A DNA stretch of 44,008 nt, from NCBI GenBank assembly GCA_903891365.1, contig CAITEG010000004.1, positions 1 through 44,008 on the forward strand, written 5' to 3'. The position numbers were made by a program, and so were the translations under genes. The DNA comes from an uncultured bacterium (lineage in GTDB: Bacteria; Patescibacteriota; Minisyncoccia; Phycocordibacterales; UBA9973). This document shows positions 1-44,008 of the stretch, piece by piece (position 1 is the stretch's first letter; the number at the start of each line of letters is the position of its first letter). The notes beneath the pieces were generated by a model. The model was not told the origin of the DNA. It ran no database searches and worked only from the letters and a program-made list of their open reading frames with translations.

Positions 1-774
1 AGATGTCTCATTATATGACAAAACCTTTGTAAAAGATATTTTGTTTTCCACAATATCTCCAATTTTAACTGGACCAACCTCTGTTTCAATCATTGTTTCA
101 TAAGGAAAACAGTAATGACTTTCGTCTAGTACGAGCATATCGAATGACAGAGAATGCAGTGAGGTGATAAAACGTTTAAGCAGATCGTAGTTGACAATCC
201 AGACTTGTGTTTTTAAGTCTATCTCTGATAAAACTGTATCACTATTGATTACAATTGAGCTAAGATTGCTCCATTTTGCTATTTCACTCTCCCACACATA
301 TTTCATGGTGGCAGGACAGATGATAAGGCTACGCCCCGCACGGCTGTGTAGGATGGCCCCTATGGCCTGTACGGTCTTACCTAGACCTGGATCATCAGCG
401 AGCAATGCTCGATAGTTAGTATTGACCAAGAAATCTATTCCTACCTTTTGGAATGGATAGAGAGTTCCTTTTAGACCAGGAATAGCAATATCACTATCAG
501 AAGCAGTTTTAACTTTCGAAAGTTTCTCTAATCTTTTTTCTTCTTGTTCTTTTTTTGTTATTAAATCATAAGCTTCTGGTGTCATTTCTATGCGACCAAA
601 CTTATTTGTTAATAAAACAAGGACTGAAAGATCTTCAAACATCCAAGCTTTATAAGTAGTACTATATTCAAAATTGTTATCATATGAATTTTTAAATGTT
701 TTGCAATACTCAACAACCTCCGGCGTGTAGTCGTAGCTAAAGGAGAACTTGTTGTTTATTACATCTATTTTCAT
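1..774 (-). CDS. SNF2/Rad54-family helicase, N-terminal portion (ORF runs off the left window edge)
   Basis: Own minus-strand translation from the ATG at 772-774 (MKIDVINNKFSFSYDYTPEVV...) stays open to base 1, so it is not on the ORF track. It has helicase motif I LLADDPGLGKT (373-405) and the DExH box MLVLDESH (115-138). Confidence 0.8.
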   Translation of the reverse strand, partial: MKIDVINNKFSFSYDYTPEVVEYCKTFKNSYDNNFEYSTTYKAWMFEDLSVLVLLTNKFGRIEMTPEAYDLITKKEQEEKRLEKLSKVKTASDSDIAIPGLKGTLYPFQKVGIDFLVNTNYRALLADDPGLGKTVQAIGAILHSRAGRSLIICPATMKYVWESEIAKWSNLSSIVINSDTVLSEIDLKTQVWIVNYDLLKRFITSLHSLSFDMLVLDESHYCFPYETMIETEVGPVKIGDIVENKISFTKVLSYNETS

Positions 775-35282: not shown

Positions 35283-36551
35283 ATGGCAGCATATCCGTTT
35301 TACAACGAACCGACTCATGACCAAGGGGTAGTCACAAATGCAGCGTCTAACGCAGCGCGAACTTCAGCCACATCAAGTGCTGAACAGCGCCTCGTTATCG
35401 ATGCAGTTGATAAGATCTTCCTTCTTGAACCGAACAAGCACCCTCTCGTAACCCTTCTGACGAATGTTGGAAAGGTATGGGATGGCAAGGCTTGGGTTGG
35501 TGCAGGAATCGCGAAAGCATCTACGACTAATCCTGAGTTCAAGTGGTTCGAAGATTACTATGGAGGCCGTTTCGGTTCCGTAGCAGTCGCTTATTCAACA
35601 GGTGATCCAGTGACAATCACTGTATCAGTTGTTGGTGCAGGTTCAAGCTCTGGTTATATCTTCACAGTAGGAGATGTAATCCGCAATGCTCGAACAGGTG
35701 AGAACATGATGGTCACGACAGTCGCGGCTACCACTATCGCTTGTTCCCGTGCATTCGGCACAACGGTAGCAACAGCCGGTCTCGCGGGAGACTCTCTTTT
35801 CATCATTGGCAATGCCTCTGAGGAAAATGCAGGAGCTCGTAACGTGAACACGACTCGTTCTACACCAAACACAAACTATACTCAGATCTTCAAGACTTCA
35901 ATCGCTCTTTCCAACACGGAAAAGGAGGTTAAGCTCTATGGTGGTCCTGATCTTCCGTATCAGCGCGCGAAGAAAGGCACCGAACACGCTCTCGATATCG
36001 AGCGCGCATTCTGGTGGGGTCAGAAATACTACGACACAGGAGTTGCAACTCAAGGTCATATCCGACGTGCAACAGGTGGCGTACTGGAATTCATCCAGGC
36101 TGGCAATTCATACGTTCAGAATCAGAATGGTCCTTTGACTGCTCCTGATTTCAACACCTTCCTCCGAGAAGGCTTCACGTATGGTAATAACGAGAAGATG
36201 CTCTTTGCATCTGGACTCGTTCTTCAGGCTATCAATGAAATGGCACGTGGCCAGATTCGTATCAAACCTGAAGAGAAGACCTATGGTATTCAGATTTCTG
36301 AATGGTTTACTCCGTTCGGCATGATCAATATCGTTCACAATCCTCTCTTCGTTGATGCGTACGCTTCGTATGCCTTCATGATGGACATGGAAAGCTTCCG
36401 TTACCGCTTCATGATGAACCGCGACACAGTTCTCCGCACCAATATTCAGGCGCCGGATGTCGATGGTCAAGTGGACGAGTATCTCTCGGAAGTCGGTCTC
36501 GAGCGCAAGCAAGCTCCGCGTCATGCGTTGCTTCTTGGTGTTACAGGCTAA
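35283..36551 (+). CDS. major capsid protein (HK97-fold class presumed)
   Basis: Size of 422 aa and position after the scaffold gene. The early PLVTLL and NPEFKWFED segments resemble coat proteins of the P22/SU10-type family as I remember them. A strong hairpin lies downstream. Confidence 0.7.
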   Translation: MAAYPFYNEPTHDQGVVTNAASNAARTSATSSAEQRLVIDAVDKIFLLEPNKHPLVTLLTNVGKVWDGKAWVGAGIAKASTTNPEFKWFEDYYGGRFGSVAVAYSTGDPVTITVSVVGAGSSSGYIFTVGDVIRNARTGENMMVTTVAATTIACSRAFGTTVATAGLAGDSLFIIGNASEENAGARNVNTTRSTPNTNYTQIFKTSIALSNTEKEVKLYGGPDLPYQRAKKGTEHALDIERAFWWGQKYYDTGVATQGHIRRATGGVLEFIQAGNSYVQNQNGPLTAPDFNTFLREGFTYGNNEKMLFASGLVLQAINEMARGQIRIKPEEKTYGIQISEWFTPFGMINIVHNPLFVDAYASYAFMMDMESFRYRFMMNRDTVLRTNIQAPDVDGQVDEYLSEVGLERKQAPRHALLLGVTG

Positions 36552-37617: not shown

Positions 37618-38109
37618 ATGAAGTTTATTTCAAGAAGTTCAAATTATATGGTTGTTTTAAAACCAGGGATACAAGGAAATCATTTGACAGGTCAGCCATC
37701 CGTTCCTGGACTTTATGTACGCTTCCGTGATGGTATTGCGGAAATCAAGGATGAGGAAATTATTAACCTCATGAAGAATAGTGAGGGTTTTAGAAATGGT
37801 GATTTTATAGCAGCCGATGAACAAGGTGCTGATCCATTTGCAGACACGAGGAGTCAACTTGAACCGACTCACGTTATTTCAGAAATAAAATATGGACACA
37901 TAGAAGGACGCAAAGCAAGTGAAACGCCAGTAAAGATTCCTGCCGCTGTCAAAAAATTGATTGAGGAAGAGGCTGTTAGAATGGCAAAAGCAATGCTTCC
38001 AGATCTACTAAAAGAGGCTATAAAAGAGATGACAAGTGCGGCCTCTATTGAACCAGAAAAGGTCTCAAAAGCAACTACCAAAAACGCTTCGGCTCCAACC
38101 GTTATCTAG
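37618..38109 (+). CDS. hypothetical protein (163 aa)
   Basis: ORF track. The upstream sequence TAATATAAAACTATG mirrors the leaderless context at 16003-16017. Confidence 0.5.
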   Translation: MKFISRSSNYMVVLKPGIQGNHLTGQPSVPGLYVRFRDGIAEIKDEEIINLMKNSEGFRNGDFIAADEQGADPFADTRSQLEPTHVISEIKYGHIEGRKASETPVKIPAAVKKLIEEEAVRMAKAMLPDLLKEAIKEMTSAASIEPEKVSKATTKNASAPTVI

Positions 38110-38189
38110 TAAGTAGACTTTGTACTAAAATGCACTCTCCATGGTGCAGACTTTAGTATTGTGTGTATATCAATTTAATTGTCTAAAAC

Positions 38190-39026
38190 ATGGACTGCAT
38201 CCCACAAAATTTCTACTATGACCCGATCCGACAAGGGACGGGTAAGGGTGTTTGGAACTGGTATTCTGGCGCTCCTTATCAGAATGGTGGATACCTAGTT
38301 CTCCTTAATGGGTCAGGTTATATGTTCTATGATTGCGGTAAAGGAAGCATCTCTTATGTTTTAAATATTCCTCACGATCCAACAGATTTTTCGGCTCGTC
38401 AATGGGGTCTTAGAAGTGGCGAAGATTATGTTCTATTTGATTTTAGTGGTGGAACATTCCAAGCAATTTCAGCTTCAACAAGAGGAACACGGACAGCTTC
38501 TTCAGTAATCGCATGGGATAGTACTTGGACTCAAACAGATACTACCTTTATGATTCGATGGGAAGCTGGAATGGCAACTTTCTATATCAACGGAATTGTT
38601 CGTGCAGTTCTTTCGGATGCTTCAATTCCTTATGGCCCAATGAGTCCATTTGTTCATAACAATGGAGCAGATTTGTTTATGATTGAAAGTGTTGTTGGGC
38701 AAGGTCTTCAGAGTTTGATTCTTGATCCTGTAGAAACTTCAAGTGATACTTCTAGTCCTTCTATTTCAACTCTACATGATAGTATGACTTCAAGTGAGGT
38801 TATTACTATCACAAACGCAACTCTTCCAGCAAATAGTGTTTCAGACACAATCTCAGCATCAAGTGATACTGTAACTGCAGCTGATTCACTTGATAAAGCA
38901 TCTTCAGTTTCTGAAACAACTTCAATGACTGAGAGTACTACAGCAGCAGTACAAATGACGTTCCTAAGATCTGTTGCTGACACAATTACAATAACTGACG
39001 TAATCTCTAATAGTCATACCGCCTAG
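38190..39026 (+). CDS. hypothetical structural protein: jelly-roll/lectin-like N-domain plus a Ser/Thr-rich tail
   Basis: The N-terminal ~170 aa has a beta-sandwich-like pattern (FMIRWEAGMATFYINGIV). The C-terminal ~100 aa is a Ser/Thr/Asp-rich region with SDT/DTIT repeats. Confidence 0.5.
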   Translation: MDCIPQNFYYDPIRQGTGKGVWNWYSGAPYQNGGYLVLLNGSGYMFYDCGKGSISYVLNIPHDPTDFSARQWGLRSGEDYVLFDFSGGTFQAISASTRGTRTASSVIAWDSTWTQTDTTFMIRWEAGMATFYINGIVRAVLSDASIPYGPMSPFVHNNGADLFMIESVVGQGLQSLILDPVETSSDTSSPSISTLHDSMTSSEVITITNATLPANSVSDTISASSDTVTAADSLDKASSVSETTSMTESTTAAVQMTFLRSVADTITITDVISNSHTA

Positions 39027-39028
39027 TT

Positions 39029-39295
39029 ATGGATCCTGCAACTCAATGCGATCATGATGTACTGATAGAACTTCGCACTGAGATGCGGATGATCCGACAG
39101 GATATAAAAGAACTAAAGGATGGTCTCTCCACCCGCGTGAATGATCACGAGAGTCGTATTCGTTCTCTTGAAACTCACGTTGGGGATGCTATTGCAGAAA
39201 GAAAAGGTTCAGATCGGGCGACTCGTTTGTATGGTGCAATTTTAATATTCGTAGTGGGAGTAGTTGAGTTCTTTATTAGCCATTATTATAGATAG
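39029..39295 (+). CDS. XhlA-like lysis-associated membrane protein (88 aa)
   Basis: N-terminal coiled coil (IELRTEMRMIRQDIKELKD...RIRSLE) and a C-terminal TM helix LYGAILIFVVGVVEFFI. It lies directly upstream of the endolysin, as in PBSX-type xhlA cassettes. Confidence 0.45.
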   Translation: MDPATQCDHDVLIELRTEMRMIRQDIKELKDGLSTRVNDHESRIRSLETHVGDAIAERKGSDRATRLYGAILIFVVGVVEFFISHYYR

Positions 39296-39299
39296 TTTT

Positions 39300-40376
39300 A
39301 TGGATAAACAAATTCCAGCGCTTGGAGCAGTTCCAAGCCCTCATGATTATAGGGATGATTATGCTAAGGTGGCGCTAGGAGCCCCTCAGACGGCTCCATT
39401 TGCCCTTCCAGCGAGTTTTGAGACCTCTATGCCTGGTCCAGTACTTATGCAGGCGCAAATCCCCGCCTGTGTGTCACACTCAGTAGCACAGGTACTCCAA
39501 CTCTACTGGTATAAAAAGACTGGTAAACTTATAGACTTTTCTCCTCGCTTCTTGGATGTACTGGCGAAGCGTTTTGACGGACAACCTTTAGATGGGGGGA
39601 CTATTCCACGCCTTGTTTTCAAACTTGCCGTAAAATACGGGTGTGCAACAACAGCAACTGTTCCAAATGATACAAGTTTATCTCTTGCACAATATCGAAA
39701 TGATTCTATTTTGACACCAGCAGCTTTTACAGAAGCGCTTCAACACAAAATTCCTGGATTCATCCGTGTTCCAGACAGCTTTGATGCAGTACGCCAAGCA
39801 GTGTATTTTCATGGTGCGGTATCAACTTTAATGGAAATTGGAAAAGAATGGTGGACAAACACTAGTGGAACAAGTTCATGGGTTGATTCAGAAATTGATC
39901 CATTAAGAATTCCTGTAGTTCAAGTTGGAGGTCATCAGATCGTAGTTAAAGGTTGGACTGATAATGATTTCAACACATTACGTAATTCATGGAGTGATAA
40001 GTGGGCAAATATTGGTGAGGCTAAATATGATTTCGCTAATTGGGCTCCGTATATTATAGAAGGTTGGACTGTAGCAGAAATTCCAGAAGATGTAAAAGAT
40101 TTTATGGCGACTCTTCCTGCTCCTACAGATTTCCATTACACCTGGAATACAAATATGAGTCTTGGGCAAACAAATGAGGACATTAAGTTCATGCAAATAG
40201 CCCTAATGATTCTTGGTTTCATTTCTCCGTTTGATCCTAGTCAACTTGGAATCTATGGACCTAAGACTGCGGTAGGTGTTTTGGCTTACCAGAAGTCAAA
40301 AAAGATAAATCCACCTTCAGCAAATAATGTTGGACCAATGACACGTGCTGCTTTGAACGCAGACTTCTCTATATAG
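39300..40376 (+). CDS. endolysin: papain-like (C1-type) cysteine peptidase domain + C-terminal PG_binding_1 domain
   Basis: Q-x5-C (QAQIPACVSHS), GGHQIVVKGW and LRNSWSDKWANIG reproduce the papain Gln/Cys/His/Asn-Trp signature. The C-terminus NEDIKFMQIALMILGF...GIYGPKTAVGVLAYQ...GPMTRAAL is PG_binding_1-like. I prefer the ATG at 39300, just after the upstream stop. Confidence 0.7.
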   Translation: MDKQIPALGAVPSPHDYRDDYAKVALGAPQTAPFALPASFETSMPGPVLMQAQIPACVSHSVAQVLQLYWYKKTGKLIDFSPRFLDVLAKRFDGQPLDGGTIPRLVFKLAVKYGCATTATVPNDTSLSLAQYRNDSILTPAAFTEALQHKIPGFIRVPDSFDAVRQAVYFHGAVSTLMEIGKEWWTNTSGTSSWVDSEIDPLRIPVVQVGGHQIVVKGWTDNDFNTLRNSWSDKWANIGEAKYDFANWAPYIIEGWTVAEIPEDVKDFMATLPAPTDFHYTWNTNMSLGQTNEDIKFMQIALMILGFISPFDPSQLGIYGPKTAVGVLAYQKSKKINPPSANNVGPMTRAALNADFSI

Positions 40377-40417
40377 ACTTACCTATACTTTAGGTATTAA
40401 TAACTAATATAAAAACA

Positions 40418-40630
40418 ATGGATTATTCAACTACACAGGCTGGAAATATTGCCGCTATTGCGGGTCTTCTGGTCATGATTGCTTCCCATTTTGGATATAC
40501 ATTTATCACTACAGCAGAAGTAGCGTCAATTATTGGTGCTCTCTTGACAGTTGGTGGTATTGTTGTCTCGTGGATTGATCAGGTGAAAAGTGGACATACG
40601 ACTGTTGCCGGCTTTAAAATCACTGGTTAA
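40418..40630 (+). CDS. holin-like protein (70 aa, two TM helices)
   Basis: IAAIAGLLVMIASHFGY and VASIIGALLTVGGIVVSWI. It lies adjacent to the endolysin. Confidence 0.6.
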   Translation: MDYSTTQAGNIAAIAGLLVMIASHFGYTFITTAEVASIIGALLTVGGIVVSWIDQVKSGHTTVAGFKITG

Positions 40631-40727
40631 TAGACTCAGATAATATAAGTAATAGCCCATTGCACCGTCAAATAAGCAGGTCGTAGACACCGCAATGGGA
40701 TAGTGTTAACACTAATTTTAAAAAATT

Positions 40728-41237
40728 ATGGCAAAGAAAGGTACAGATTCTCTAGGACTCAGAGGTTTCTTCCGAGTTCAGATTCTTGACGGCAGCAAGG
40801 TTGCTGGCGATTCAGGATGGATCGAGAATACAGTAACAAACCAGGGTAAGAATGATTATCTTCTTACGTGGCTCGTTACCGGTTCTGGTGGTAAGTTCGT
40901 CTCGTCTATGGGTCTTGGCACCGGTGGTGCTCCTGCAGCGGGTGATACTACCCTCTCAGGCGAGATCTTCGACAAGTCAACAAACGGTACGACTAACTCT
41001 CGTGCAGCTGTTTCGACTTCGATCAACACCCTTACACAGGCTCAGTTTACTGCCGCTTTCAACAGCGCAAACTCGTTCGTTACTGCTTCTCACAACATCT
41101 CGAACGTTGGTTTGTTCAATACCTACCTCACCTCATTGGCGAACGCAGGTACGCTCTTCGCAGGTAATACATTTACCTCGAGTTCTGTAGCAACGAACCA
41201 GTCAGTGCAAGTCACATACCAGGTCAACCTATCATAA
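40728..41237 (+). CDS. hypothetical structural protein (169 aa)
   Basis: ORF track. Gly/Thr/Ser/Asn-rich beta composition, followed by a terminator. Confidence 0.5.
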   Translation: MAKKGTDSLGLRGFFRVQILDGSKVAGDSGWIENTVTNQGKNDYLLTWLVTGSGGKFVSSMGLGTGGAPAAGDTTLSGEIFDKSTNGTTNSRAAVSTSINTLTQAQFTAAFNSANSFVTASHNISNVGLFNTYLTSLANAGTLFAGNTFTSSSVATNQSVQVTYQVNLS

Positions 41238-41256
41238 GGTTAATCAGGTTTGTAAG

Positions 41257-41291
41257 AAACAAACACCTCTTGACGAGGTGTTTGTTTTTGT
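41257..41291 (+). terminator. rho-independent terminator
   Basis: aaacaaacacctc (41257-41269), loop ttgac, gaggtgtttgttt (41275-41287), then ttgt. Confidence 0.75.
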
Positions 41292-41323
41292 ATATGATAA
41301 AGAGATATTAATAACAATCGTCT

Positions 41324-42004
41324 ATGGCAAAAGCAAAGACAAAAATAGTAAAGGCAAAGACTAAAAAGAAATCTATAGATCAATTATTAAAAGAAAGTGC
41401 TATTGTCAAACTAGACCTCGCATGTGGCGCCAATAAACAGGGAAAAGACTTTATAGGGATGGATATGTTCCCTTATCCGGGAGTTGATATCGTTCATAAT
41501 GCACTAAACTTCCCATGGCCATTGCCAGACAAGAGTGTGAATATGATTGTGGCCTCTCACTTCTTGGAGCACGTATCTGCGAGTGGAATAGACCCGCACC
41601 TTTCTGACCTTATAGATCTCTTGATTAAAAATAAGATTCTTAAGGAAAAAGAAATAACAGATCTTATGGGTGAACACCGAATATTTAGTAACTTCATTCG
41701 TCTTCTTGACGAATGTTGGCGTGTTCTTAAGGTTGGTGGACAAATGGCCTTTGTAGGTCCTTATTACCAGTCCATAGGAGCAGCACAGGATCCTACACAT
41801 GTGAAACCCTTGTGCGAAGCTTCTATGTTGTATTTTGATCCTGAGGAGTGTGGTGGTTTGTTCTGGAATTTCTACAAACCAAAACCTTGGAAACTTGAAA
41901 TGCAGTCCTTTGAAGGAAGTGGAAATATTGAAGTCATTATAAGCAAACGTGATATAAAACCGTATGAAGAAAGAATCAAAAGTCATCTCGAAGTTGAAAA
42001 CTAA
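41324..42004 (+). CDS. class I SAM-dependent methyltransferase with a Lys-rich N-terminus
   Basis: MAKAKTKIVKAKTKKKS, then motif I VKLDLACGAN, NMIVASHFLEHV and WRVLKVGGQMAFVGPY. Confidence 0.7.
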   Translation: MAKAKTKIVKAKTKKKSIDQLLKESAIVKLDLACGANKQGKDFIGMDMFPYPGVDIVHNALNFPWPLPDKSVNMIVASHFLEHVSASGIDPHLSDLIDLLIKNKILKEKEITDLMGEHRIFSNFIRLLDECWRVLKVGGQMAFVGPYYQSIGAAQDPTHVKPLCEASMLYFDPEECGGLFWNFYKPKPWKLEMQSFEGSGNIEVIISKRDIKPYEERIKSHLEVEN

Positions 42005-42947
42005 AACTAAAAAGACCGTCAAGATTAAGACTAAAAAGTCAGTGACTAAGAAGGAACCCAAGAAACCATCAATTCCTTCAGCCATTCCTCTAGGACAGAT
42101 AATGCAAGGGAAATATAACTTTACTATTCCTGGCATCAAATTAGCAAAAGATTCAGCTCTTCTAGGGAAAAGAGTTCTTATCTTTACTCCTACAATAGGT
42201 CTAGTTAGAATGGAGTGGGTTTCGGCCCGCTATTCTCAGTTGGTTCCAACCAATTGGTCATTTGCAAATATGTTGCAATTTATCTCTGCGCAAATTCCAA
42301 TTGGATATCAAATTCCTGATGCTCAGAATCTAATGGTTAAAAAGGTTGTTGAAGAGGGTTATGAATGGGTTCTATTAATTGAAGATGACAATATTTTGCC
42401 ACCAGATGCATTTATTCGATTCAATGAGTATATAAATGAAGCAACTATTCCAATGGTTTCGGGGTTGTACTTCGTGAAATCTACTTTTGCAGAACCAATT
42501 CTCTATCGTGGTCGTGGTAACTCCCATTTCCGTGACTGGAAATTGGGGGATCGTGTATGGTGTGACGGTGTACCGACAGGCGCACTTCTCATCCACTCAT
42601 CACTTCTGAAAGCAGCATGGAAAGAGTCTGAAGAGTACATGATAATGGGTGAAAAAACTCGTCGTGTGTTTGAACAACCAAATAGGATCTGGTACGACGA
42701 GGTGTCAGGTGGTATAATTGGAAAAGGCGGTACAACCGATCTCAATTGGTGTAGTCGTCTTATGGAAGATGGATTGTTTGAAAAGGCCGGTTGGCCTAAG
42801 TTTCAAAAGATGCAGTATCCTTTCTTAGTGGATACAAGGATCTTCGTTAGACATATCGGAAAGGATGGTGTGCAGTGGCCAATAGCGGTCCCAGCTCGCT
42901 TTGTTCCTGACGATAAAAATTATAAAGGCATTGATATAATCGATTAA
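41964..42947 (+). CDS. GT-A fold glycosyltransferase-like protein, possibly with a Lys-rich N-terminus
   Basis: RVLIFTPTIG..., the DxD-like VLLIEDDNILPPDAF, and GT2-like length. The start is uncertain. The ATG at 41964 overlaps the methyltransferase gene by 41 nt and adds KLKTKTKKTVKIKTKKSVTKKEPKKP. The next ATG is at 42102. Confidence 0.5.
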   Translation: MKKESKVISKLKTKTKKTVKIKTKKSVTKKEPKKPSIPSAIPLGQIMQGKYNFTIPGIKLAKDSALLGKRVLIFTPTIGLVRMEWVSARYSQLVPTNWSFANMLQFISAQIPIGYQIPDAQNLMVKKVVEEGYEWVLLIEDDNILPPDAFIRFNEYINEATIPMVSGLYFVKSTFAEPILYRGRGNSHFRDWKLGDRVWCDGVPTGALLIHSSLLKAAWKESEEYMIMGEKTRRVFEQPNRIWYDEVSGGIIGKGGTTDLNWCSRLMEDGLFEKAGWPKFQKMQYPFLVDTRIFVRHIGKDGVQWPIAVPARFVPDDKNYKGIDIID

Positions 42948-42951
42948 AATT

Positions 42952-43068
42952 ATGGAAGAAAACGCAGGCGTAACCGACAGTGTTCAGGCAGAAGTTATCA
43001 CGGATGCTCCAGTAGAAACTACTGAGGAAACTGTTGTCGTACCGGAAGAGGTTGTAGAGGCTGAATAA
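42952..43068 (+). CDS. small acidic protein (38 aa)
   Basis: Own translation: MEENAGVTDSVQAEVITDAPVETTEETVVVPEEVVEAE. Followed by a terminator. Confidence 0.35.
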   Translation: MEENAGVTDSVQAEVITDAPVETTEETVVVPEEVVEAE

Positions 43069-43088
43069 GCTTATCTTACAGATAGAGG

Positions 43089-43114
43089 AAACGCGTCTTT
43101 TGGCGCGTTTTTTC
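43089..43114 (+). terminator. rho-independent terminator
   Basis: aaacgcg (43089-43095), loop tcttttgg, cgcgttt (43104-43110), with the T-run extending to 43113. Confidence 0.65.
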
Positions 43115-43209
43115 TTAACCTATGGCCTACTAATTGAGATATTCTTAGGAATATGGCGAAATATCTACTAGCACTATTTGCCCAGAAAGTGCGGGGTCTT
43201 TTCTAATTT

Positions 43210-44008
43210 ATGGCAATAGCATACAACTCATCAGGAGAAGCTGACGGAACGACAGGGGCATCTCCTTCTACAGCATCAATTACTGTGCCGAGTAGTTTAT
43301 CTAACTCCGTACTTGTTGTGGCAGTTCAAGGACATAATTCAGGTAAAAATGATATGTCTTGTTCTGCTTGTACATACAATGGAGTTTCAATGATTCCATT
43401 ATCGGCAGCAGCTGGAGTAGGAAGTGGTACGGGATACTGTGTTAGAGGATTTTATCTTCTTAACCCAGCATCTGGAGCAAATACTATTTCTGCATCTTTC
43501 CCTAACACTTCTGATGCTGTGATATTTATTTATGGAATATATACAGGAGTGGGGGCTGTCACTAGTGGAAATAATGGAACAGACGCTGGTTCAAAAATTT
43601 CAACTTGTTCACTTAACGTAACAACATCACAAACTGGAGAATGGGGAGTTTCTACACAAGGGGGGAATGGGGCTTACACAACAGCTAGTACAAACATAAA
43701 CTCTATTCGTCTTAATAATTCAAGCGGGGCGTGGTTTTTGGGTGACTCAAATGGTTCTCTCGGAACAGCTGGGACTTATGCTCTCGTTTGGAACGAATCT
43801 CCTGCTGACTGGTGGTATGGCGGTGCATCATTTTCACTTCAGCCTGCTCAAGCAATATATAATATTTCAGTTTCCGATACAATTACTGTTTCTGAAGCAA
43901 AAACGATAACCAACAGTACCCTGGGTACTAAAACAGTAAGTGACACAATAACAGTTTCTGAAGCAAAAACGATAACCAACAGTACCCTGGGTACTAAAAC
44001 AGTAAGTG
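43210..44008 (+). CDS. Ser/Thr/Gly-rich structural (fibre-like) protein, 5' part (runs off the right window edge)
   Basis: Own translation from the ATG at 43210: MAIAYNSSGEADGTTGASPSTASITVPSS... stays open to the window end, so it is absent from the track. It ends in 22-aa tandem repeats DTITVSEAKTITNSTLGTKTVS. Confidence 0.6.
   Translation, partial: MAIAYNSSGEADGTTGASPSTASITVPSSLSNSVLVVAVQGHNSGKNDMSCSACTYNGVSMIPLSAAAGVGSGTGYCVRGFYLLNPASGANTISASFPNTSDAVIFIYGIYTGVGAVTSGNNGTDAGSKISTCSLNVTTSQTGEWGVSTQGGNGAYTTASTNINSIRLNNSSGAWFLGDSNGSLGTAGTYALVWNESPADWWYGGASFSLQPAQAIYNISVSDTITVSEAKTITNSTLGTKTVSDTITVSEAKTITNSTLGTKTVS
43876..44008 (+). repeat. 66-bp in-frame tandem repeat (at least 2 copies, truncated by the window edge)
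   Basis: 43876-43941 matches 43942-44007 except for about 3 substitutions near the 5' end of the unit. Confidence 0.9.

Follow-up and report, generated by a model that had tools for sequence, protein, structure and literature searches.

A three-gene cassette, in which a small fibre-type protein of 169 residues (P169), a class I S-adenosylmethionine (SAM)-dependent methyltransferase (MT) and a glycosyltransferase (GT) are encoded in this order, was identified near the right end of a 44,008-nt stretch of uncultured phage DNA. This stretch (the window, to whose positions all coordinates refer unless another contig is named) constitutes the complete contig C4, which was binned together with a tiny bacterium of the Candidate Phyla Radiation (CPR). 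An initial annotation of the same DNA had singled out MT and GT as a pair and proposed them as a module for glycosylation and methylation of virion proteins, with Ser/Thr-rich segments of neighbouring structural proteins as substrates. The kind of function proposed there is still the best-supported role, but the real unit is the triad of P169, MT and GT rather than the pair alone, P169 having been missed, and the substrate was probably not chosen correctly. The interpretation favoured here, to which about an even chance is assigned, is that a virion protein is glycosylated and methylated by a cytoplasmic cassette, with P169 as the preferred acceptor.

The gene order P169, MT, GT was kept in all 33 neighbourhoods reached through GT (three homologues and 30 IMG/VR loci). 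When loci were collected through P169 instead, 79 were obtained, nine of which were left out of the test because the contig ended less than 1 kb downstream of P169, and the same order was found in 70 of the 70 testable loci. The triad is present in the structural module of two unrelated virion architectures, the capsid proteins of which belong to different families. In SU10-type podophages it follows the head genes, with large fibre proteins and the SU10 adaptor downstream, and in the window and the relatives L001 and L010 it is placed after the lysis genes as well; in the second architecture it lies between the HK97/phrog_10 major head protein and the head-tail adaptor, in a genome that also carries a minor-tail gene (phrog_290), tail-tube (Phage_tube_2) and PhageMin_Tail genes. 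Identities to the window proteins in the second architecture were 44-58% for P169, 33-50% for MT and 54-58% for GT, and, fibre repeats aside, P169 was the only structural protein common to both architectures. Among 185,579 species-representative genomes GT was found once, on a 38.6-kb contig of a Candidatus Shapirobacteria metagenome-assembled genome (MAG) that is also listed in IMG/VR as a viral contig, and one MT homologue was located on a 92.6-kb contig labelled Candidatus Dojkabacteria. These matches indicate that the cassette is phage-borne and recurrently tied to CPR bins.

The GT and MT genes are unusual intein hosts. An intein (Hint and LAGLIDADG) was found directly after DGIPMG in the GT of the relative L080 (6784-8775) and another of the same composition directly after QDPTH in the MT of L015 (4304-5941), positions that point to these motifs as functionally central. 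Free-standing homing endonucleases of the HNH_3 and NUMOD3/DUF559 types were located between triad genes in L006, L007, L010, L013 and others. Inteins at invariant motifs, together with homing endonucleases, indicate that the triad genes are strongly conserved and probably indispensable.

The second enzyme gene, described initially as DxD glycosyltransferase-like, encodes a protein with a predicted GT-A fold. Foldseek with the AlphaFold2 (AF2) model (predicted local distance difference test score, pLDDT, 74) retrieved A197 of the archaeal Sulfolobus turreted icosahedral virus (STIV) as the top match (E 6.7e-8), followed by B4GALNT1, ColGalT1, KfiA, SpsA, GnT-I and A64R of Paramecium bursaria chlorella virus 1 (PBCV-1), with a Foldseek probability of 1.0 for the matches from A197 through GnT-I. 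The protein consists of a Lys-rich tail (residues 1-~45) and a catalytic core (~68-310) with the motifs FTPT (74-77), E140-D141-D142-N143, DGVPTG (201-206), TTD (257-259) and H297. In an alignment of 33 sequences, E140, D142 and N143 (IEDDN), P204/G206, T257/D259 and H297 were invariant, and T258 was nearly so. E140-D141-D142 is the DxD-type motif (E/D-x-D) for metal and nucleoside diphosphate (NDP)-sugar at the end of the central strand, TTD occupies the position of the GT2 'TED', and the aspartate of this T-T/E-D motif would be the catalytic base. A divergent member (L080) carries the canonical GT2 D-H-D and T-E-D at these two key positions.

Homologues of GT fell into >1,900 clusters at 55-75% identity, none with a Pfam domain or an informative name, and weak GT2 matches were given by only 3-4 of the 33 members. 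Nothing useful was obtained for GT from PDB sequences by single-sequence and profile searches, and tblastn against 50,697 phage records returned one weak match only, to a Methanobacteriales virus. Because no curated family model reaches significance, the protein is, on its modelled fold, a GT-A glycosyltransferase of a previously undescribed family.

The MT is of the Methyltransf_11 type. It scored 23.8 bits against Pfam PF08241, barely above the cut-off of 21.2, many of its homologues carry PF08241, and it matched phrog_6636 'methyltransferase' (6e-8), so that its earlier designation as a class I methyltransferase was upheld. SAM motif I reads LDLACG, with D31 and G35 almost invariant, G45-x-D47 provides the acidic residue that follows beta-2, and SHxxEH, WR, QDPTH, YFDP and PxPW are invariant in the family alignment. 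The best PDB relative of the MT profile was 3dli, a generic methyltransferase (E 1.7e-6), and NCBIfam gave weak and scattered matches to small-molecule O-methyltransferases. The family has SAM motif I, the acidic residue of beta-2 and DPTH in common with the Methyltransf_11/3dli type. It is set apart by invariant YFDP and Y-P-x-PW motifs of its own, by an optional insert of 33 aa and by the Lys-rich tails. The DNA-methyltransferase motifs [DNS]PP[YFW] and PCQ were absent from the 226-aa protein and from the family alignment.

Both enzymes begin with Lys-rich segments, as had been noticed before: within the first 36 residues 10 Lys (net +7) were counted in MT and 16 Lys (net +14) in GT. The tail sequence of GT (KKEPKKP...) is conserved in its closest relatives, and the alignment supports the upstream start codon of this gene. 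Across relatives the net charge of the tails varied from +2 to +14, and the tails were fully missing in several members. They appear to be lineage-specific additions and therefore no part of the conserved mechanism.

P169, with 26% Ser+Thr, belongs to a family of 2,224 clusters, every one of them named 'hypothetical'. It matched phrog_5417, and phrog_4176 'tail fiber protein' was matched by 13 of 29 family members. With its AF2 model (pLDDT 77), Foldseek retrieved the Bas63 connector chains L and I, the Sf14 neck, A511 gp105 and the phi812 baseplate arm, and in BFVD many proteins that carry a tail-collar fibre or tail fibre annotation; the matches to whisker-type structures had E values of 5e-4 to 4e-3 and target-normalised template modelling (TM) scores of 0.60-0.71, with no sequence similarity. 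No match of P169 to phages was obtained by tblastn, and single-sequence and profile searches of PDB sequences gave nothing useful. Judged from its model, P169 is probably a fibre/whisker-type virion protein with a tail-collar fibre-tip or bead-like fold.

Sugar-pathway genes accompany the triad in several phages. In three relatives a sugar cluster lies directly 3' of it (L032, 6865-12760; L028, 6975-12802; L023, 7119-9955), holding GT2 enzymes, an RmlD-like reductase, a UDP-Glc/GDP-Man dehydrogenase, a radical SAM-SPASM enzyme, Methyltransf_24/TylF-like O-methyltransferases, Methyltransf_11 and two unannotated families (clusters c34 and c31), and no membrane segments were found in the cluster proteins of these three relatives. 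A sugar-1-phosphate nucleotidylyltransferase of the RmlA type (NTP_transferase, PF00483, E 2e-41) is encoded by the phage of the window on contig C39 (17942-18649), which adjoins the window as described below, and a nucleotidylyltransferase was also present in 3 of 10 other triad phages. Classical routes of DNA glycosylation require a thymidylate-synthase-like hydroxymethylase, and this enzyme was absent from the phage contigs of the bin and from five complete triad phages. Sugar clusters free of membrane segments, the nucleotidylyltransferases and the missing hydroxymethylase together support soluble, cytoplasmic glycosylation of a protein. Synthesis of a surface polysaccharide was rated less likely because the clusters lack membrane proteins.

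From the folds, motifs, gene linkage and sugar-pathway neighbours observed, we infer the following model, including its acceptor and sugar, the sequence of the two reactions and the benefit to the phage. P169 would be made in bulk, with the strong terminator behind its gene limiting read-through, and MT, GT and the small open reading frame (ORF) after GT would form a translationally coupled unit that is expressed at a lower level and closed by the second terminator. The MT and GT ORFs with their 41-nt overlap were recovered as annotated initially, and the terminators that had been placed around them at 41257 and 43089 both fold strongly, with 0 of 200 shuffles folding equally well. In the cytoplasm, GT would bind an NDP-sugar through E/D-x-D and a divalent cation and, with the T-T/E-D aspartate as base, transfer the sugar to a virion fibre protein. 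As no other structural protein accompanies the enzymes in every case, P169 would be the most parsimonious choice of acceptor, with repeat-bearing fibre proteins as the second possibility. The sugar would afterwards be O-methylated by MT; less likely, MT would methylate the protein. Functionally essential methylation of a tail protein by a host enzyme offers a precedent (PMC13445384). The product would be a virion surface fibre or whisker coated with glycan, the benefit of which may lie in adsorption or in shielding.

The small ORF downstream of GT, which encodes a strongly acidic product of 38 residues (net -12) and had been overlooked initially together with P169, starts 5 nt after GT and is possibly a fourth member of the cassette. 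In 26 of 68 distinct loci of relatives, the small ORF directly after GT contains the motif of the fibre repeats (L-x-[IV]-x-[IVL]-x-[DE]-x-hydrophobic) exactly once, against a chance expectation of ~0.5 by our own estimate; the strict motif was not matched by the 38-aa ORF of the window at that position. Small ORFs after GT often end in GPGQ or RPPT in relatives. At the other end of the unit, a sigma70-like sequence (TTGACG-17-TATGAT, 41270-41298) lies within the P169 terminator, in its loop and descending arm, and 26 nt 5' of the MT start, and may, as a consensus match only, represent an overlap of terminator and promoter.

The flanking structural ORFs do contain Ser/Thr-rich segments as first described, with a Ser+Thr content of 43% both in residues 179-278 of p278 and in residues 216-266 of the fibre protein (Table 1). 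The N-domain of p278 (residues 7-180) aligns to 21 relatives, has no Pfam match and defines a family specific to SU10-like relatives, and the tail of p278 aligns to repeat regions of large fibre proteins. This ~175-aa domain, encoded in the window at 38190-38730, often occurs in tandem paralogues, one with and one without a repeat tail. In the fibre protein, 22-aa repeats (VSDTITVSEAKTITNSTLGTKT) begin at residue ~216 and are encoded by a 66-nt tandem repeat (43879-44008; 2.0 copies, 96% match) that reaches the end of the contig; since the contig stops inside this repeat, its end is an assembly break. The remainder of the fibre gene and the adaptor and nozzle genes were searched for in the same bin and not found. 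A repeat of 20-22 aa makes up the Ser/Thr-rich segments; in both phage groups it also fills the large proteins encoded 3' of the triad, for example as VSVSDTLTITE in L001 and as INVSDSLGLNES in L003. What is conserved in this repeat among relatives is Asp, Glu and alternating hydrophobic residues, and Ser/Thr positions are replaced by Gly, Asn or Ala in relatives such as L003. A pattern of this kind would be more in keeping with a structural beta-repeat or with a docking site than with a conserved acceptor site. A search of the PDB with the L003 repeat protein gave nothing.

Table 1. Features of the window around the triad (positions in nt)
Feature	Positions	Strand	Description
SU10-type major capsid protein	35283-36551		late structural module
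p278 (278 aa)	38190-39026	+	conserved N-domain (residues 7-180) and 100-aa Ser/Thr-rich C-terminal tail
C1-peptidase/peptidoglycan-binding endolysin	39264-40376		late structural module
P169 (169 aa)	40728-41237	+	first triad gene
Intrinsic terminator after P169	41251-41294	+	hairpin and U-run; -20.9 kcal/mol, z -6.9
MT (226 aa)	41324-42004	+	class I SAM-dependent methyltransferase, Methyltransf_11 type
GT (327 aa)	41964-42947	+	GT-A fold (predicted); overlaps MT by 41 nt
38-aa acidic ORF	42952-43068	+	net -12; 5 nt after GT
Intrinsic terminator closing the MT-GT-small ORF unit	43084-43115	+	hairpin and U-run; -19.6 kcal/mol, z -4.8
Fibre protein, 5' part	43210-44008	+	N-terminal region matches phrog_553 'minor tail protein'

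Several points weigh against glycosylation of P169 by the cassette. The acceptor was deduced from gene linkage only, and a linkage of enzymes and fibre protein would also be expected if the enzymes altered a host receptor bound by the fibre. The P169 family has neither a conserved sequon nor a strikingly conserved Ser/Thr patch, and NDP-sugar genes occur in a minority of triad phages only. The confidence of the GT model is moderate (pLDDT 74, TM 0.39-0.62), and GT remained below the threshold of every Pfam GT family (GT2 E 0.07; best PF13641 with 13.6 bits against a cut-off of 27). Fibre and receptor-binding genes of phages often adjoin receptor-modifying genes, for example in seroconverting phages, and MT and GT might in the same way act on a surface glycoconjugate of the host or its cytoplasmic precursor, resulting in receptor masking, superinfection exclusion or progeny release; P169 would then be linked to them because it binds that glycan, and the polybasic tails would hold both enzymes at the anionic inner face of the membrane. 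The Lys-rich tails on both enzymes and the tail-collar/fibre-tip fold of P169 agree with such a modification of the host envelope. We nevertheless regard it as rather unlikely, since no membrane protein, flippase, polymerase or initiating transferase is encoded in the triad or the extended sugar clusters, P169 retains 44-72% identity across both virion types, far more than would be expected of a host-range determinant, the genes lie within the late structural module, and the tails are missing in several relatives.

It also seems improbable that the pair O-glycosylates the Ser/Thr-rich repeats of the p278 tail and of the fibre protein from 43210, the substrates named in the initial annotation. 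Repeat-bearing proteins or single-repeat small ORFs follow GT in most loci, the segments of this phage reach the Ser+Thr content given above, and PMC12619734 (citing Freeman 2023) places the glycans of mycobacteriophage virions on the C-termini of capsid and tail-tube subunits; the residues actually conserved in the repeats, however, are Asp, Glu and hydrophobic ones, and Ser/Thr is freely replaceable, so that this part of the original proposal was not sustained. Glycosylation and methylation of phage DNA bases, with the Lys-rich tails binding DNA or RNA, is thought very improbable. Polybasic N-termini would suit such a role, and DNA glycosyltransferases are common in phages according to PMC12619734 (citing Pyle 2024), but glycosylation of DNA by the cassette was rejected because the hydroxymethylase is missing, and, in addition, MT lacks DNA-methyltransferase motifs and has small-molecule or generic enzymes as its best relatives, the tails are variable, and the genes stand in a structural module, tied to a fibre protein. 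Hardly any weight is given to the idea that MT and GT are assembly chaperones or virion components that have kept their enzyme folds: their location among structural genes and a conservation very high and on a par with that of the major capsid protein would be explained, but the catalytic motifs (E/D-x-D, T-T/E-D and H297 of GT; motif I and the acidic beta-2 residue of MT) are invariant, and inteins target exactly such motifs.

To our knowledge, experimental proof that virions are glycosylated by phage-encoded enzymes is limited to a few actinobacteriophages and to giant algal viruses. Virion glycosylation itself is thus already known, and what is new here is an undescribed GT-A family and an obligate trio of two enzymes and a fibre protein. 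In cluster O mycobacteriophages an O-methyltransferase beside three glycosyltransferases is described as modifying capsid and tail-tube proteins in PMC11600133 (citing Freeman 2023). The mycobacteriophage cassettes (Che8; Corndog/cluster O) resemble the present one in that soluble MT and GT enzymes are encoded by the phage next to structural genes, and PMC11600133 and PMC12619734 describe them as modifying virion proteins, their enzymes acting on the C-termini of capsid and tail-tube subunits, whereas here an obligate link to a dedicated small fibre-type protein exists. The present cassette further differs in having a single GT, of an undescribed family; neither GT nor MT had a mycobacteriophage match in the 50,697 phage records, and the likely hosts are CPR bacteria here and Actinobacteria there.

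STIV A197 (PDB 2c0n) and PBCV-1 A64R (2p6w) are, like GT, viral proteins of the GT-A fold, and A197 is the best structural match (TM 0.62 on target). Full-length A064R has rhamnosyltransferase and methyltransferase activities for capsid glycans, a parallel to the pairing of GT and MT. The sequence identity of GT to the two proteins is, however, 11-13%, MT is a separate gene here, and GT is ~130 residues longer than A197, with a conserved C-terminal half (WKLGD...GTTDLxWC...PFLVDTxIFVxH) that has no counterpart. An analogous cluster was seen upstream of a 'phage stabilization protein' in an unrelated podophage (L036; Podoviridae sp. ctKR88, MW202524.1, 6469-16792), comprising a yqgM-like GT, a methyltransferase domain, an HAS-like GT2 and a methyltransferase that shares 33% identity with the MT of the window; no P169 or GT homologue was seen in this cluster.

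For P169, the chain-like fibres (GP4 gp80, VP1 gp11 and A1002 gp40/gp41) and the Bas63 gp5 whiskers offer a comparison. According to the available texts of PMC13730344 and PMC12609058, these are built from monomers of 140-171 aa, whose dimers attach one after another to an extended 'rope' through beta-sheet augmentation, and no adjacent modifying enzymes are mentioned there. P169, with its 169 aa, is of similar size, its model matches connector chains L and I of Bas63, from the entry that holds the whisker gp5, and the Sf14 neck, and proteins with 20-22-aa repeats adjoin the triad as candidates for a 'rope'. The resemblance of P169 is confined to the fold (E 5e-4 to 4e-3); by sequence there was no match. 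By its model, P169 could form a bead-on-rope system with the repeats. A wider proposal, namely that glycosylated and methylated P169 'beads' docked on 20-22-aa 'rope' repeats make up a new kind of appendage in the form of chain-like fibres or whiskers, the universal and indispensable adsorption device of a large clade of CPR/Patescibacteria phages, with the single-repeat ORF as assembly primer or chaperone, is speculative and improbable.

The window is phage DNA by its gene content. Besides the genes in Table 1, it encodes an SU10/P22-like portal, a large terminase (TerL), a primase-VapE, phiEco32-type amidoligases and a lysis cassette, and the MT/GT pair indeed stands among late structural genes, as stated initially, with the SU10-type major capsid protein, portal, TerL and endolysin nearby. 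No match of positions 38000-44008 to GenBank phages was obtained by blastn. The bin comprises 70 contigs (533 kb), and since its ribosomal protein L11 falls in the same 90%-identity cluster as a Candidatus Paceibacterota entry, it was taken as a CPR/Patescibacteria MAG.

The left end of the window (1-141) shares a 141-nt overlap with contig C39, and an ORF for an SNF2 helicase is continuous across the C39/C4 junction, giving an 859-aa frame with an intein-interrupted look (DESH/CFPYE...). C39 further encodes a class II ribonucleotide reductase, an SPFH protein, a histidine phosphatase and GroES/GroEL-like proteins, the last recognised by eye from the N-terminal parts of the proteins. Over 93 nt, C39 (19250-19342, ~1 kb before its right end) has the same sequence as positions 1-93 of the 7.5-kb contig C11, possibly another link of the phage in the assembly graph; apart from this stretch, a comparison of the phage contigs with the remaining bin showed no spacer-like matches. 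Contig C6, similar in GC content, carries host genes.

Three families of ~2,000 clusters each, unnamed and without a significant Pfam match, are thus held together in an invariant cassette of uncultured phages that have two architectures and several of which were binned with CPR bacteria (Paceibacterota, Shapirobacteria and Dojkabacteria). If the proposed function is true, a new glycosyltransferase family would be defined, and a dedicated trio of acceptor and enzymes, easily reconstituted in E. coli, would be at hand. Phages of ultrasmall bacteria, the surface biology of which is hardly known, would then commonly bear glycan-coated fibres.

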